Assembly: GCF_003334385.1 (NCBI RefSeq)
Contig: NZ_QOWN01000013.1
Direction: 5' to 3' (one strand)
DNA length: 64,000 bases
Source of the DNA: Escherichia coli
Lineage (GTDB): Bacteria; Pseudomonadota; Gammaproteobacteria; Enterobacterales; Enterobacteriaceae
The translations under genes and the position numbers were made by a program. Below the pieces are notes generated by a model, which was not told where the DNA came from, made no database searches, and worked only from the letters and a program-made list of their open reading frames with translations. The stretch's first letter is position 1; every line of letters begins with the position of its first letter. Shown here in pieces: positions 15,077-45,495 of this stretch.

Positions 15077-15813
15077 TGTTTTTTGGACTCCCTCATTATA
15101 ATTACTGGTATTAACCAGCATGTGTAATCCCGGATTGGGACCCTGCACAGGCTCGGAGACTTTCTGCTGTCAGGTTACTTTATCGTTACGTATTACTATC
15201 ACCGACTTTATTTATTCTGGTGATTCAGACGATCACCTTATGTCGATTCGTACTGTGTCTCCCCTGTCGAGACACATTATTCTTTCGCGACGCTCTTTAA
15301 TTGTTAATTATTCTCATTACCAATAAAGAATCGTCTGGCGGTTGCCCGGAAAGTACCAAATGCGGTTCTTACTCGCCAATACATTTTGCAAAATTGTTAA
15401 GCAATTCTCTTTTATTGACCGTATCAGAATCTATAGCTTGCATCCATGCCTTAACAAACATCTTTCAATTCAATCAAATAGAGATTGGCTAAGCATGTCT
15501 ATCTTTTCTGATTACAGTTCCAGTAGTGAAATGCACAATAATTTAACAATTGATTATTATTTAGCACTTTCCTCTACCAAAGGCAGTGGAATTACTAATA
15601 TCATTTCAATTATTCTTCAGCAAGCCCAGGATTATGATGTGGCGAAAATAACATGATGGTGAGGAGAAGCAGTTAAGGAAATCCTTATAACTAACTGTAA
15701 TTTGAGAAGAATATTTTTACCTATTCCTTTTGCTTTTGATAACTGCGCGGGAACAAAGTAAAAATAATGACGAAGTAAACGGAGCATGGCAGCTCCGTTT
15801 CATTTGAAAGGAA

Positions 15814-16461: not shown

Positions 16462-16937
16462 GGTTAGCTCCGAAGCAAAAGCCGGATAATGTTAGCCATA
16501 AATAAGGTTGAAAAGACGCGCTGACAATACGCCTTTTGACAGCATTTTTCACCTCCTAACTACTTAAAATTGCTATCATTCGTTATTGTTATCTAGTTGT
16601 GCAAAACATGCTAATGTAGCCACCAAATCATACTACAATTTATTAACTGTTAGCTATAATGGCGAAAAGCGATGCTGAAAGGTGTCAGCTTTGCAAAAAT
16701 TTGATTTAGATCACGTAATCAGTACCCAGAAGTGAGTAATCTTGCTTACGCCACCTGGAAGTGACGCATTAGAGATAATAACTCTAATGTTTAAACTCTT
16801 TTAGTAAATCACAGTGAGTGTGAGCGCGAGTAAGCTTTTGATTTTCATAGGTTAAGCAAATCATCACCGCACTGACTATACTCTCGTATTCGAGCAGATG
16901 ATTTACTAAAAAAGTTTAACATTATCAGGAGAGCATT

Positions 16938-34700: not shown

Positions 34701-35489
34701 CGGGGTACGCGTCTGCGGCACGTTTGCCCCCCAGGCGATGATGTAGCTGGAGTTGTACCAGTCAGCAGATTCCGGTACGTCAGTTTGCTCGCCCCAGGTT
34801 TGCGGAGACGCAGGAGGCAAGTCGCAGTACCAGTCGTAGAAGCTTAAGCAAGTACCGCCAATCAGCGAGAGATAGCGTGCACCCGATGCGTAAGAAACCA
34901 TCGACATTGCCGGAATTGGCGAGAAACCAGCAACACGGTCCGGGCCGTAGTTTTTGATGGTGTAAACGTTAGATGCGGCGATCAGTTCGTTCACCTCCTG
35001 CCAGGAAGAACGAACAAATCCACCGCGTCCACGCGCCTGCTTAAAGCTTTTCGCTTTATCGGCGTCTTCAATGATAGAAGCCCATGCCTCAACCGGATCG
35101 CTATGCAGCGCCTTCGCTTCACGCCACATTTTCATCAGGCGTTTGCGCATCATCGGGTATTTCAGGCGGTTGGCACTGTAAAGATACCAGGAGTAGCTGG
35201 CACCGCGCGGGCAGCCGCGAGGTTCATGGTTTGGCAGATCCGGACGGGTACGCGGATAGTCAGTCTGCTGGGTTTCCCAGGTGACCAGACCGTTTTTGAC
35301 GTAGATTTTCCAGCTGCAGGAGCCGGTGCAGTTTACCCCGTGGGTAGAGCGGACGATTTTGTCATGCTGCCAACGCTGGCGATATCCATCCTCCCAGTCA
35401 CGGTTGGTATTGAGAAGCTGGCCATGCCCATCGGCAAAGGTTTCACCCTTCTGTTTGAAGTAGCGAAACCGGTCCAGGAATTTACTCAT
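31746..35489 (-). CDS. narG: Respiratory nitrate reductase 1 alpha subunit (molybdopterin)
   Basis: 1247-aa ORF, N-terminal HGVNCTGSCSW Fe-S motif. Confidence 0.97.
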   Translation of the reverse strand: MSKFLDRFRYFKQKGETFADGHGQLLNTNRDWEDGYRQRWQHDKIVRSTHGVNCTGSCSWKIYVKNGLVTWETQQTDYPRTRPDLPNHEPRGCPRGASYSWYLYSANRLKYPMMRKRLMKMWREAKALHSDPVEAWASIIEDADKAKSFKQARGRGGFVRSSWQEVNELIAASNVYTIKNYGPDRVAGFSPIPAMSMVSYASGARYLSLIGGTCLSFYDWYCDLPPASPQTWGEQTDVPESADWYNSSYIIAWGANVPQTRTPDAHFFTEVRYKGTKTVAVTPDYAEIAKLCDLWLAPKQGTDAAMALAMGHVMLREFHLDNPSQYFTDYVRRYTDMPMLVMLEERDGYYAAGRMLRAADLVDALGQENNPEWKTVAFNTNGEMVAPNGSIGFRWGEKGKWNLEQRDGKTGEETELQLSLLGSQDEIAEVGFPYFGGDGTEHFNKVELENVLLHKLPVKRLQLADGSTALVTTVYDLTLANYGLERGLNDVNCATSYDDVKAYTPAWAEQITGVSRSQIIRIAREFADNADKTHGRSMIIVGAGLNHWYHLDMNYRGLINMLIFCGCVGQSGGGWAHYVGQEKLRPQTGWQPLAFALDWQRPARHMNSTSYFYNHSSQWRYETVTAEELLSPMADKSRYTGHLIDFNVRAERMGWLPSAPQLGTNPLTIAGEAEKAGMNPVDYTVKSLKEGSIRFAAEQPENGKNHPRNLFIWRSNLLGSSGKGHEFMLKYLLGTEHGIQGKDLGQQGGVKPEEVDWQDNGLEGKLDLVVTLDFRLSSTCLYSDIILPTATWYEKDDMNTSDMHPFIHPLSAAVDPAWEAKSDWEIYKAIAKKFSEVCVGHLGKETDIVTLPIQHDSAAELAQPLDVKDWKKGECDLIPGKTAPHIMVVERDYPATYERFTSIGPLMEKIGNGGKGIAWNTQSEMDLLRKLNYTKAEGPAKGQPMLNTAIDAAEMILTLAPETNGQVAVKAWAALSEFTGRDHTHLALNKEDEKIRFRDIQAQPRKIISSPTWSGLEDEHVSYNAGYTNVHELIPWRTLSGRQQLYQDHQWMRDFGESLLVYRPPIDTRSVKEVIGQKSNGNQEKALNFLTPHQKWGIHSTYSDNLLMLTLGRGGPVVWLSEADAKDLGIADNDWIEVFNSNGALTARAVVSQRVPAGMTMMYHAQERIVNLPGSEITQQRGGIHNSVTRITPKPTHMIGGYAHLAYGFNYYGTVGSNRDEFVVVRKMKNIDWLDGEGNDQVQESVK

Positions 35490-35580
35490 CGGTTTTCTCC
35501 TGTGGGAGCCTGTCGGCCCTCTGATAAATCGACATTGCTAATGTTTAAGGGCAAGGTAACGCTCTGAAACAGCGTGGGAA

Positions 35581-35594
35581 TTGATAACGATCAA
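35581..35594 (-). promoter_or_regulatory. FNR site of the narG promoter
   Basis: Perfect TTGATaacgATCAA, centred about 98 bp upstream of the narG start codon; consistent with FNR-dependent activation of narGHJI. Confidence 0.6.
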
Positions 35595-36004
35595 GAGTGA
35601 TGGGGATGAAAAATAAAGTAAATTCCTAAGATACCCCTTTAGGATAATTAACAGCCACCACATAACAGACTGTAAATTAAGACGTTTTATACCTGTAGTT
35701 ATTTAAACTATTAAGATTTTTATGCAGATGGGTATTAAGGAGTATTCCCCATGGGTAACATATTAATGGCTCTTAATGAAATCCGGCGAAATAAACCATA
35801 TAACATTAGTATGTTGTAACTAAATGACGCATAAAAAAAGCGCGACATCATGCCGCGCAAAGGATAATCAAATATTTTACTCTATATAATTCGGTTTACA
35901 GGAAGGCGGCAAGTGAATGAATCCCAGGAGCTTACTAAAGTAAGTGACTGGGGTGAATGAACGCAGCCGCAGCACATGTAACCCGAAGTATGACGAGTAA
36001 CGGT

Positions 36005-37396
36005 TTATTTTTTAGAATGCCGACCATATACCGCCCAGGTAATCACTACGCAGGCGATATAGAAAATCAAAAATACCTTCATTGCGCCGACTGGCGAACC
36101 CGTTAATGCCAGCGAGCTACCAAACGCTTTCGGGATAAAGAAGCCACCAATCGCGCCAATCGCAGAGATGAAACCCAGCGCCGCCGCCGTGTCGGTTGCC
36201 GCTTCACGCATCGCACGTTCGTCAGAACCCCCTTCTGCTTTCACGCGATCCATTGTCAGTTTACGGAAGATCACTGAAATCATCTGGAAAGTGGAACCAC
36301 TACCCAGCCCAGCTGTCAGGAACAGCGCCAGGAAGACCGCGAAGAACGCCATGAAGCTTCCGCCCTGCCCGTCAGTCGGTAAGGTCAGGAACAGCAGGCC
36401 GCTGAAAATCGCCATCAGAATAAAGTTCACCAGCGTGACACGAGTTCCGCCCAGACGGTCAGATAATGCACCACCTGCAGAACGCGCCAGCGCACCAATA
36501 AACGGCCCGAAGAAAGCGTATTGCAGAATCTGAACATCCGGGAACTGCGTTTTTGACAGCATTGCAAAGCCCGCGGAGAAGCCGATGAAGGAGCCGAAGG
36601 TTGCCAGATACAGCAGGCTCATAATCCACAGATGACCCCGTTTGAGTACCGGCAACTGCTCCTTGATGGAGGCTTTCGAGGTAGCAAGATCGTTCATGCC
36701 AAACCACGCCGCAATGGTGAAGATGGCAAGGAACGGCACCCATATCCAGGACGCATTCGCCAGATACAGCTCAGTCCCATCCGGCTGTTTGACGCCCTGG
36801 CTACCAAATACTGCGAAAATCGACAGTGATACCACCAGCGGAGCAACCAACTGCATGACGCTGACGCCCATGTTTCCCAGACCACCATTCAGACCCAGCG
36901 CGCCACCCTGCTTCTGTTTCGGAAAGAAGAAGCTGATGTTTGCCATACTGGATGCGAAGTTCGCGCCAGCAAAGCCGCATAGCAGAGAGATGATGATGAA
37001 GACGCTATAAGGCGTGGAGGTATCCTGCACGGCAAAACCCAGCCAGACGCAAGGAATAATCAGAATACCGGTGCTGAACGCCGTCCAGCGACGACCACCG
37101 AAGATAGGAACCATAAAGGAGTATGGAACACGTAATAACGCGCCAGAAACCGAAGGCAGCGCAGTCAACATAAATAGCTGATCGGTCGTAAAATTAAAGC
37201 CGACTTTCGGTAGGTTCACCGCAACAGCGCTGAACAACATCCATACGCAAAACGCCAGCAGCAGACAGGGAACGGAAATCCACAGGTTGCGGCTGGCAAT
37301 ACGTTGACCGCGTTGTTGCCAGAACGCAGGATCTTCCGGTCGCCAATCTGTAATGACAGCTCCAGTAGCCCTTTCGGGGGCGGATGAGTGACTCAT
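36005..37396 (-). CDS. narK: Nitrate/nitrite antiporter NarK (MFS)
   Basis: 463 aa from MSHSSAPERATG..., 12-TM MFS protein, synteny. Confidence 0.93.
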   Translation of the reverse strand: MSHSSAPERATGAVITDWRPEDPAFWQQRGQRIASRNLWISVPCLLLAFCVWMLFSAVAVNLPKVGFNFTTDQLFMLTALPSVSGALLRVPYSFMVPIFGGRRWTAFSTGILIIPCVWLGFAVQDTSTPYSVFIIISLLCGFAGANFASSMANISFFFPKQKQGGALGLNGGLGNMGVSVMQLVAPLVVSLSIFAVFGSQGVKQPDGTELYLANASWIWVPFLAIFTIAAWFGMNDLATSKASIKEQLPVLKRGHLWIMSLLYLATFGSFIGFSAGFAMLSKTQFPDVQILQYAFFGPFIGALARSAGGALSDRLGGTRVTLVNFILMAIFSGLLFLTLPTDGQGGSFMAFFAVFLALFLTAGLGSGSTFQMISVIFRKLTMDRVKAEGGSDERAMREAATDTAAALGFISAIGAIGGFFIPKAFGSSLALTGSPVGAMKVFLIFYIACVVITWAVYGRHSKK

Positions 37397-37455
37397 AGAC
37401 ACCTCTGATACTCGTTTCGATGTCTGCCACCTTAGTGTCTGTAGCTAAAGGCAAT

Positions 37456-37507
37456 TTGATGTAAATCAAACGATAAGATAACTTTATCTATCATTGATAT
37501 TTATCAT
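37456..37507 (-). promoter_or_regulatory. narK promoter with two FNR-type sites (TTGATgtaaATCAA 37456-37469; TTGATatttATCAT 37494-37507)
   Basis: Site centres are 38 bp apart, matching the known -41.5/-79.5 arrangement of the narK promoter. Confidence 0.55.
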
Positions 37508-37734
37508 TACCCATAGTGAGTACAGTGACTTCATAAAAATTATGAGATTTTTCACGGTGCTGTAAAATCCCTACCCTTACCGATGTAAAGCGACTAACCA
37601 CACGGCAAATAAGGAGTAACTCTTTCCGGGTATGGGTATACTTCAGCCAATAGCCGAGAATACTGCCATTCCAGAATGTATCGTCACATTCATTAAGGTT
37701 ATTGCTCATTTAAAGCCTGAAGGAAGAGGTTTAC

Positions 37735-39531
37735 ATGCTTAAACGTTGTCTCTCTCCGCTCACCCTGGTTAATCAGGTTGCGCTTATTGTGTTGCTTTCT
37801 ACTGCTATTGGACTGGCAGGGATGGCGGTTTCTGGCTGGCTGGTGCAAGGCGTTCAGGGCAGCGCCCATGCGATCAACAAAGCGGGATCGCTGCGCATGC
37901 AAAGTTACCGTCTGTTGGCGGCAGTGCCATTAAGCGAGAAAGACAAGCCCTTAATTAAAGAGATGGAACAAACGGCATTTAGCGCCGAGTTGACTCGAGC
38001 AGCAGAACGAGACGGACAACTGGCGCAATTACAGGGTTTACAAGATTACTGGCGTAATGAACTGATCCCTGCGCTGATGCGTGCACAAAACCGAGAAACG
38101 GTGTCAGCGGATGTCAGCCAGTTTGTTGCCGGGCTTGATCAACTGGTATCTGGTTTTGACCGCACCACGGAAATGCGCATCGAGACAGTGGTACTGGTCC
38201 ATCGGGTAATGGCGGTATTTATGGCACTTTTACTGGTGTTCACTATTATCTGGTTGCGGGCGCGACTGCTACAACCGTGGCGGCAACTGCTGGCAATGGC
38301 GAGTGCCGTCAGTCATCGCGATTTTACCCAACGCGCAAACATCAGCGGGCGCAACGAAATGGCGATGCTTGGAACTGCGTTGAACAATATGTCTGCAGAA
38401 CTGGCCGAAAGTTATGCCGTACTTGAGCAGCGGGTTCAGGAGAAAACCGCCGGGCTGGAGCATAAAAATCAGATCCTCTCTTTTTTATGGCAGGCTAACC
38501 GCCGTTTGCATTCCCGCGCCCCGCTGTGTGAACGCCTGTCACCTGTACTCAACGGCTTACAGAATTTAACCCTGCTACGTGATATCGAATTGCGGGTGTA
38601 TGACACTGATGATGAAGAGAATCATCAGGAGTTTACCTGCCAGCCAGATATGACTTGTGATGATAAAGGCTGCCAGCTCTGCCCGCGCGGCGTATTACCC
38701 GTTGGTGATCGCGGCACGACCCTGAAGTGGCGGCTGGCTGACTCTCATACGCAGTACGGTATTTTGCTGGCGACCCTGCCGCAGGGGCGTCATCTTAGCC
38801 ATGATCAACAACAACTGGTGGATACCCTGGTTGAACAACTCACCGCCACGCTGGCGCTGGATCGCCATCAGGAACGTCAGCAACAGTTGATCGTGATGGA
38901 AGAGCGTGCCACCATTGCGCGCGAACTGCATGATTCTATTGCCCAATCTCTCTCTTGCATGAAGATGCAGGTGAGTTGTTTACAGATGCAGGGCGATGCG
39001 CTGCCAGAAAGCAGCCGCGAACTGTTAAGTCAGATCCGTAACGAACTGAATGCATCCTGGGCGCAGTTGCGTGAATTGCTCACCACATTCCGCTTGCAGC
39101 TCACCGAGCCTGGATTACGTCCGGCGCTGGAGGCGAGTTGCGAAGAGTACAGCGCCAAATTTGGCTTCCCGGTGAAGCTGGATTATCAATTGCCGCCTCG
39201 CCTGGTGCCTTCGCATCAGGCAATCCACTTGTTGCAAATTGCCCGTGAGGCATTAAGTAACGCCCTCAAACATTCGCAAGCGAGTGAAGTCGTGGTGACG
39301 GTGGCGCAAAACGATAATCAGGTCAAACTGACCGTCCAGGATAACGGCTGCGGCGTGCCTGAAAATGCCATCCGCAGCAATCACTACGGCATGATAATAA
39401 TGCGCGATCGTGCGCAAAGTTTACGAGGCGATTGCCGCGTCCGCCGTCGTGAATCAGGTGGCACCGAAGTGGTGGTCACCTTTATTCCCGAAAAAACTTT
39501 CACAGACGTCCAAGGAGATACCCATGAGTAA
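37735..39531 (+). CDS. narX: Nitrate/nitrite sensor histidine kinase NarX
   Basis: 598 aa with two TM segments flanking a periplasmic domain, H-box ([11 protein letters not shown]) and ATPase motifs. Confidence 0.96.
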
Positions 39532-40174
39532 TCAGGAACCGGCTACTATCCTGCTGATTGACGATCACCCGATGCTGCGAACTGGCGTAAAACAGCTTAT
39601 CAGTATGGCACCAGATATCACCGTGGTTGGCGAAGCGAGTAATGGCGAACAGGGTATTGAACTGGCGGAGTCTCTTGATCCCGATCTGATCCTGTTAGAT
39701 CTCAATATGCCCGGCATGAACGGTCTGGAAACGCTGGATAAACTGCGCGAAAAGTCCCTCTCAGGGCGCATTGTGGTATTCAGCGTCTCTAACCATGAAG
39801 AAGATGTGGTCACCGCACTGAAACGCGGCGCGGATGGCTATCTGTTAAAAGATATGGAACCGGAAGATCTGCTGAAAGCATTGCATCAGGCAGCTGCTGG
39901 CGAAATGGTATTAAGCGAAGCATTAACGCCTGTTCTGGCCGCCAGCTTGCGCGCTAACCGTGCCACTACTGAGCGCGATGTTAACCAGTTAACCCCACGC
40001 GAGCGCGATATTCTCAAGCTGATTGCCCAGGGTTTGCCGAACAAGATGATTGCCCGCCGCCTGGATATCACCGAAAGCACAGTAAAAGTGCACGTCAAGC
40101 ACATGCTGAAGAAAATGAAGCTCAAGTCTCGCGTGGAAGCAGCGGTATGGGTGCATCAGGAGCGCATTTTCTGA
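39524..40174 (+). CDS. narL: Nitrate/nitrite response regulator NarL
   Basis: 216 aa from [19 protein letters not shown]; receiver domain plus LuxR-type HTH; overlaps the narX 3' end by 8 bp. Confidence 0.96.
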
Positions 40175-43234: not shown

Positions 43235-43503
43235 CGTTGACTCCTTTTACAAAGTTGAACATTAAGTGTGGTCAACAATATCTACTCTTGCCAAAACATA
43301 AGAATTTTCAGGTCAGACTCTTCTTAAGAAACGCTAAAACAAACATTGTCTAAACGTAATACTTATTTTTATGCCCCAATGAGTAAAAAATCGACAGCGG
43401 GGTAAAAATTCGTAAAATGTTACCGATATCCAGACACTTTCTGTTATTTTTCCTACCTATTTTTTACATTTTCGATAAATTCATCTGCAAAGGGATAACC
43501 ATA

Positions 43504-44604: not shown

Positions 44605-44889
44605 CAGTTATATCTCCTCCGATGACGGTAATCGGGGGAGATAATATAAATTCCTGCTTATTGTATTTCTTCATACTACCTGGACAGGTCGTTAATCAGA
44701 ATTGCGAGCCTGTACCACACCCTGCACGAAACCACTGCAACAGCTGTTGAAAAGCCGGAATGTACTCTTCATTGCAAACATTTCAGGGATGAAGTGAAGA
44801 TGAATTGCGACGTAGTATCCACACCAAGCCGGCGTTATCCGGTGAGGCGCAATGTTGCGGGGCTTTATCCCTGGTGGCATTGGTTGCTG

Positions 44890-44959
44890 GAAAGAGAAAC
44901 CCCCCGCACGTTGAGAGGTAAAACCTGACAACAAAACGGGGGCTAATCTTGAAACCAGA
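44890..44959 (-). ncRNA. rdl: Rdl antisense RNA (type I antitoxin), copy 1; coordinates approximate
   Basis: Minus-strand sequence GUCUGGUUUCAAGAUUAGCCCCCGUUUUGUUGUCAGG...CGUGCGGGGGGUUUCUCUUU ends in a hairpin plus U-run and has a TTGTAA-17-TATTCT promoter upstream. Matches my recollection of Rdl RNA. Confidence 0.5.
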
Positions 44960-45006
44960 CACTTCAAGAATAGCCGCAAAATGTTGTCATTACAACAAGG
45001 CGGCTA

Positions 45007-45114
45007 TATGACGCTCGCGCAGTTTGCCATGATTTTCTGGCACGACCTGGCAGCACCGATCCTAGCGGGAATTATTACCGCAGCGATTGTCAGCTGGTGG
45101 CGTAACCGGAAGTA
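45007..45114 (+). CDS. ldr: Ldr type I toxin peptide (35 aa), copy 1
   Basis: MTLAQFAMIFWHDLAAPILAGIITAAIVSWWRNRK, followed by a rho-independent terminator (GGCCGCAGGggtaacagCCTGCGGCC + T-run). Confidence 0.85.
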
Positions 45115-45425
45115 AGGTGAAAACGGGCGTCAGGCTGCCGTGATGGCAATATGCGCCCGAAACCGGCCGCAGGGGTAACAGCCTGCGGCCATTTTTGTCT
45201 TTATCTCTTCCACAAGTAAATATTGGCAACCCGAGCTGGAAGCATCATCCAGAGCACTCATGAAACGACTGCAACAGCTGTTGAAAAGCCGGAATGTACT
45301 CTTTATTGCAAACATTTCAGGGATGAAGTGAAGATGAATTGAGACGTAGTATCCACACCAAGCCGGAATTATCCGGTGAGGCGCAATGTTGCGGGGGCTT
45401 TATCCCTGGTGGCATTGGTTGCTGG

Positions 45426-45495
45426 AAAGAGAAAACCCCCGCACGTTGAGAGGTAAAACCTGACAACAGAACGGGGGCTAATCTTGAAACCAGAC
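45426..45495 (-). ncRNA. rdl: Rdl antisense RNA, copy 2; coordinates approximate
   Basis: Same arrangement as copy 1, with a few substitutions. Confidence 0.5.

Follow-up and report, generated by a model that had tools for sequence, protein, structure and literature searches.

The interval 35581-37507 of the stretch of E. coli DNA analysed here (64 kb in all, hereafter the window) very probably belongs to the E. coli chromosomal nar locus, with narL-narX divergent from narK-(NarS)-narGHJI, the native control DNA in place and the whole reversed in the window (probability about 0.95). The feature is ordinary and already known, being none other than the K-12 nar control region, which was elucidated in that laboratory strain decades ago. 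Two points are only mildly new, namely that the distal narK FNR box is restricted to one lineage and that an ERIC insertion is polymorphic, and neither changes this verdict. The strain carries a complete, unaltered anaerobic nitrate-respiration module together with its FNR/NarL/IHF control DNA, the importance of which is small beyond bookkeeping. The original prediction had presented the module as expected core biology, and this is borne out by identity with K-12, by published footprints, and by promoter-proximal FNR boxes that are nearly invariant in the Enterobacteriaceae.

Identity and gene content of the locus

We computed K-12 identity, motif positions, enrichment, conservation, and the integrity of the genes. 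Aligned base by base, positions 35400-37800 of the window are 100% identical to E. coli K-12 MG1655, and a megablast search with the same segment finds the nar region, annotated as narG / narK / narX, in 5416 of 5426 complete E. coli genomes. The window comes from the E. coli chromosome and runs in the orientation opposite to the K-12 reference.

The narGHJI operon, encoding respiratory nitrate reductase A, occupies 28827..35489 on the minus strand and comprises narI (28827-29504), narJ (29504-30214), narH (30211-31749), and narG (31746-35489, ATG at 35489), all full length as judged by K-12 lengths and by the RefSeq annotation of an identical strain, 720632. The nitrate/nitrite antiporter gene narK (36005-37396, minus strand) is identical to that of K-12. 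So is the narXL operon (37735..40174, plus strand), which encodes the nitrate sensor kinase and response regulator; narX (37735-39531) and narL (39524-40174) are both full length, as had been claimed for them, and the cognate NarX-NarL two-component system is thus present and intact. All seven Nar proteins are intact and free of internal stops, and their only differences from K-12 are NarG S255A and NarI I204V. The bulk of the interval 35581-37507 consists of the narK coding sequence, the small RNA NarS, and an ERIC repeat, none of which figured in the original prediction. Since fnr, narQ/narP, and ihf are not encoded within the 64-kb window, their presence is assumed.

In its control DNA the narG promoter does not differ from that of K-12, with which it shares the whole narK-narG intergenic sequence, the FNR site with its predicted centre at -41.5, and NarL heptamers at -89, -185, -195, and -208; the differences are confined to the two protein substitutions. 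The narK/narXL control sequence is likewise the same as in K-12, with the proximal FNR box at a predicted -41.5, the distal box 38 bp farther upstream, and heptamers at -90, -194, and -214.

FNR boxes and predicted transcription start sites

As predicted, there is a perfect FNR box upstream of narG: TTGATAACGATCAA (TTGATCGTTATCAA on the minus strand) at 35581..35594, with a predicted centre at -41.5 and located 92 bp upstream of the narG start codon. Two boxes had also been claimed for narK, 38 bp apart. Their coordinates and spacing are right, and one of the two is perfect. The proximal box, TTGATGTAAATCAA (TTGATTTACATCAA on the minus strand), spans 37456..37469, matches the consensus perfectly, and has a predicted centre at -41.5. 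The distal box, TTGATATTTATCAT (ATGATAAATATCAA on the minus strand), spans 37494..37507 and has one mismatch. The box centres are at 37462.5 and 37500.5, a spacing of 38 bp, so that narK has a tandem arrangement in which the second box lies at the expected distance upstream of the first. The distal box would be the site labelled -79.5, a designation that agrees with the geometry measured here. At 35581-35594 and 37456-37469, the two perfect boxes have the consensus of a class II FNR-activated promoter.

Start sites were placed 41.5 bp downstream of the centres of the promoter-proximal boxes, the value tabulated for these promoters (PMC3688515). At both promoters the predicted +1 base would be an A, at 35546 for narG and at 37421 for narK. 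Both are preceded on the minus strand by -10-like hexamers at the proper spacing for an FNR centre at -41.5: TACCTT at 35553..35558 for narG and TAAGGT at 37429..37434 for narK. The -10 regions are also conserved between species, as 'GTTAC-T' across 17 genera at narG and as 'CTAA-GT-GCAG' at narK.

A general scan for sigma-70 promoters returned three sites, compared with 3.0 expected, and none of them falls at the FNR-dependent promoters. Absence of matches at narG and narK is what one would expect, because these promoters depend on an activator. A sigma-70-like element directed at narK (TTTACA-16-CATAAT, 10/12) is visible on the minus strand at 37539-37566, upstream of both narK FNR boxes; it may be a chance match, since the region has no excess of such elements.

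Conservation of the control regions

By scanning with a degenerate pattern for the NarG N-terminus, we collected 117 loci from Enterobacteriaceae and their relatives and compared about 100 species. At narG the FNR box matches the consensus perfectly in 104 of 109 loci, and its distance from the ATG is 93-102 bp except in six of the 109. Conservation of the proximal narK box is as strong: it is perfect in 59 of 60 loci, at 66 +/- 2 bp from the start codon. In both boxes the half-sites are invariant and the 4-bp spacer varies. Upstream NarL heptamers keep their register with the FNR box as well, exactly so for the narG -195 heptamer in 73 of 103 loci, and within 1 bp for the narK -194 and -214 heptamers, which form invariant blocks, in 53 of 59. 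The conserved core of the design consists of the FNR box nearest each promoter and the NarL heptamers farther upstream.

Outside E. coli, the narG promoters of Klebsiella, Kluyvera, and Raoultella have the FNR position, the -10 hexamer, the -195 heptamer, and blocks of the 5′ UTR as in E. coli. The region around -89 differs. Klebsiella and Kluyvera have a perfect 7-2-7 inverted repeat there (TACCACC TT GGTGGTA), and that of Raoultella is near-perfect, whereas in E. coli (window 35625-35645) the left heptamer is degenerate when compared with loci L083, L074, L076, and L047. This agrees with the published description of E. coli narG as a promoter that lacks 7-2-7 sites (PMC4549865).

Within the species, no less than 95% identity is retained in each of the 5416 E. 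coli genomes over the 81 bp that surround the narK boxes and over the 106 bp that surround the narG box. We sampled divergent strains at both promoters (L003), at narK (L123 and L124), and at narG (L125). In these strains the substitutions spare the covered FNR boxes and the -89/-90 heptamers.

The distal narK FNR box

The distribution of the distal narK box is very different. Allowing up to two mismatches at the 38-bp offset, we find it only in E. coli and E. albertii among 59 species. In Escherichia sp. MOD1-EC7003, whose NarK is 99.4% identical, both half-sites are broken, and in other genera only an ATGAT followed by a run of T is kept at this position. With so narrow a distribution, the distal box is best described, from these alignments, as an apparently young, Escherichia-specific accessory site outside the conserved wiring. 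The prediction that the whole regulatory wiring is preserved is supported, with the caveat that the distal box does not belong to the conserved design. In the literature we found nothing useful on tandem FNR sites at narK.

One may ask whether functional wiring is limited to two of the three boxes, the distal one being a recent, lineage-specific near-consensus that contributes little or is otherwise employed, for example in damping narK or the divergent narXL promoter. We regard the odds of this as even. The narrow distribution among the 59 narK promoters, together with the broken site of MOD1-EC7003, speaks for it. So do the reported FNR repression of narXL (PMC1805755) and a ChIP-seq table that appears to give a single narK site (PMC3688515). 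The lack of conservation and the apparently single ChIP-seq site together make the contribution of the distal box uncertain. On the other hand, the box is unchanged in all three divergent E. coli sampled at this promoter (L003, L123, and L124), and it sits within the 81 bp that are highly conserved in the 5416 genomes. The 38-bp spacing would moreover place both FNR dimers on nearly the same face of the helix. Curated K-12 databases also list the distal box as an FNR site.

Specificity and chance expectation

The perfect pattern TTGAT-N4-ATCAA occurs three times in the 64-kb window, compared with 0.08 expected, and none of 100 shuffled sequences reached three. When one mismatch is allowed, the window has eight matches against an expectation of 3.07. 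The third perfect match, TTGATGCTTATCAA at 26901-26914, is inside the purU coding sequence, where it may have arisen by chance or be silent.

As members of one protein family, FNR and CRP have similar 22-bp palindromes as their targets, which raises the idea that the palindromes are bound by CRP and not by FNR. The half-sites are TTGAT/ATCAA for FNR and TGTGA/TCACA for CRP, and the boxes carry the FNR-specific form. FNR ChIP peaks are also reported at both promoters (PMC3688515), and we consider binding by CRP in place of FNR highly improbable. In K-12, ChIP-seq places FNR at -41.5 of narG and narK (PMC3688515), and a ChIP-chip study found occupancy at narG and narK, with narX/narK listed as a target (PMC1802558). 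Anaerobic, fnr-dependent transcription is described in the literature on K-12 (PMC3688515, PMC8139620).

That the palindromes arose by chance in intergenic DNA rich in A/T, without a regulatory role, is less credible still: the match inside purU does show that perfect matches can occur at places that do not look regulatory, but with 0.08 expected per window, a start-codon distance that two boxes keep in about 100 species, invariant half-sites around a freely varying spacer, and ChIP data on the identical K-12 sequence (PMC3688515, PMC1802558), this explanation is effectively refuted, above all by the conservation across species.

NarL heptamers and the probable IHF site

The original prediction had proposed scanning the two intergenic regions for NarL heptamers and IHF sites. 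The heptamers are there, seven in all, and the strict IHF consensus is not. The pattern TACYYMT occurs four times in the narK-narG intergenic region, compared with 0.71 expected from dinucleotide shuffles (P ~0.007), and three times in the narX-narK intergenic region, compared with 0.52 expected from the same kind of shuffles (P ~0.015).

Numbered from the predicted start sites, the narG heptamer TACCCCT (35632..35638, plus strand) lies at -89 in the high-affinity NarL region, within a conserved GGGGTA/GGTGGTA block. Three more are found by the heptamer scan at 35728..35757 on the minus strand, TACCCAT (-185), TACTCCT (-195), and TACCCAT (-208). Footprints of phosphorylated NarL have been published at narG -89 and -195 (PMC4549865), and the positions from our scan coincide exactly with both, as would be expected of a NarL-activated promoter. 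At narK, TACCCAT (37508..37514, plus strand) is at -90, in a block (TACTCAC..GGGTA) that is conserved in other genera, and the scan also finds TACTCCT (-194) and TACCCAT (-214) at 37612..37638 on the minus strand.

For IHF, the consensus WATCAANNNNTTR has no strict match, and a relaxed scan with two mismatches gives matches at background level. Consensus scanning being uninformative, we used the alignment to place the site. An A/T-rich block with a CA...TTA core at 35664..35676 (minus strand), near narG -124, is the probable IHF site, given that its columns are conserved in a 17-species alignment. IHF is said to act at narG near -125, a finding reportedly made by Schroder and colleagues in 1993. 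The protein is required for narG expression (PMC3688515, PMC4549865).

A cluster of three TACYYMT matches in the chaA-chaB intergenic region (~43360-43460) was dismissed as weak and unpatterned.

Control of narXL

The region had been described as an FNR-dependent control region for narK, narGHJI, and narXL alike. This fits narK and narG. It does not fit narXL, for which repression is reported and from which the boxes are placed at some remove, their positions being those of narK sites: the proximal narK box is ~272 bp from the narX ATG. The sole statement that we found on FNR at narXL is that the operon is repressed by FNR and activated by NarL and NarP (PMC1805755). The heptamers at 37612-37638, which for narK are the -194 and -214 sites, lie 120 and 100 bp, respectively, upstream of the narX start codon; located 100-120 bp upstream of narX, they may serve narXL autoregulation.

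The NarS small RNA and the ERIC repeat

The small RNA NarS, from the 3′ end of narK, maps to 35833..36016 on the minus strand by transfer of the K-12 annotation b4813 to identical sequence. A terminator scan finds an intrinsic terminator shared by NarS and narK, with a hairpin at 35840-35858 followed by a U7 tract (minus strand). The anti-Shine-Dalgarno seed (~35861-35873, minus strand) lies upstream of the terminator and is single-stranded in the predicted fold, which has a z-score of -4.6. The locus thus has the narK 3′ UTR, the intrinsic terminator, and the single-stranded seed that characterise NarS, and in position, terminator, and seed it is like K-12 b4813. Since searches of Rfam gave no NarS family match at gathering or E-value thresholds, we base membership on the K-12 annotation and on the description of NarS (PMC7038943). 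There, NarS is a narK 3′UTR-derived, Hfq-dependent small RNA that represses nirC (Wang et al. 2020, PMC7038943).

An ERIC/IRU repeat of 123 bp is embedded in the narK 3′ UTR and the NarS precursor at 35877..35999 (no strand assigned). Its point of insertion is 3 nt upstream of the NarS seed. The repeat forms a long hairpin and matches the ERIC2 primer sequence in 20 of 22 bases. The repeat also has a weak full-length match to RF02818 in Rfam, and further copies with 80-90% identity are found elsewhere in E. coli genomes. It is, as expected of an ERIC/IRU element of ~125 bp, an imperfect palindrome with the ERIC core, multicopy, and situated in a transcribed intergenic region.

The insertion is polymorphic. 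It is present at the narK locus in 2570 of 5426 complete E. coli genomes (~47%) and is missing from the B2-type strain L003 as a 123-bp indel. NarS has the 123-bp repeat here and in K-12, whereas it is missing in Salmonella and in roughly half of the E. coli strains. With ERIC present in about half of E. coli, the NarS precursor of these strains would contain an additional long hairpin. For K-12 NarS a '170-nt insertion' has been described (PMC7038943). In the literature we found nothing relevant on ERIC at narK and no discussion of the polymorphism of the insertion across E. coli.

We considered whether the distal FNR box and the ERIC hairpin, two Escherichia-specific elements in a design that is otherwise common to the enterobacteria, are functional innovations that together retune the control of nitrate/nitrite transport. 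We think this unlikely. If it were true, ERIC-plus and ERIC-minus E. coli lineages would differ in NarS processing and in the repression of nirC.

Proposed mechanism

For start sites, protein binding, and regulatory outcome, we infer from published work on K-12, which has the identical sequence. During anoxia, dimeric [4Fe-4S] FNR would bind the TTGAT-N4-ATCAA boxes centred at -41.5 of narG and narK and there recruit RNA polymerase as a class II activator. With nitrate present, NarX would phosphorylate NarL, and NarL-P would occupy the TACYYMT heptamers at about -89/-90 and about -185 to -214 of each promoter. At narG, IHF would bend the DNA near -125 and so bring the upstream NarL cluster (-195) to the promoter. 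Maximal transcription would be reached only when anoxia and nitrate coincide. The narK transcript is predicted to stop at the intrinsic terminator (35833), with its 3′ end processed into NarS, which would repress nirC. The second narK box (-79.5) would be an Escherichia-specific accessory site.

Other features of the window and of public records

Among the one-mismatch FNR boxes elsewhere in the window, two (2342-2355 and 2387-2400) are 45 bp apart and lie ~120-180 bp upstream of ompW, which is known to be targeted by FNR (PMC3688515). A further one, at 16701-16714, is ~230 bp upstream of adhE.

Two observations concern nar sequences in public records. Contig L113 (CACSKA010000003.1), labelled Chryseobacterium sp. 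18061, has an enterobacterial narK-narG junction and a NarK that is 86.5% identical to that of E. coli; contamination or mislabelling of the public assembly is the probable cause. There are also 13 matches to the nar promoter fragments (37440-37520 and 35540-35645) on records labelled as plasmids, which may reflect misassignment of replicons or the presence of long stretches of chromosome on plasmids.

At the tyrT locus (27437-28643), three tRNA-Tyr genes (at 27437, 27731, and 28025) are accompanied by five RtT repeats. In K-12 the tRNA-Tyr genes number two (tyrT and tyrV), and the three found here indicate a copy-number expansion of the tandem unit. At 44692-45495, there are only two matches to the rdl antitoxin RNA (44895-44960 and 45430-45495), each with its ldr toxin partner, whereas the number of ldr/rdl copies is three in K-12 and in strain 720632.

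Between ychE and oppA, the window lacks the IS5 copy (IS5U) found there in K-12, and the flanks are joined directly at 15561-15564. At the beginning of the window, the sequence beyond ompW (1-1582) is not collinear with K-12 on the yciE/F/G side; its match is to the end of a prophage (integrase Arm-binding protein, excisionase, and exonuclease) that is integrated beside ompW in ~1700 E. coli genomes.
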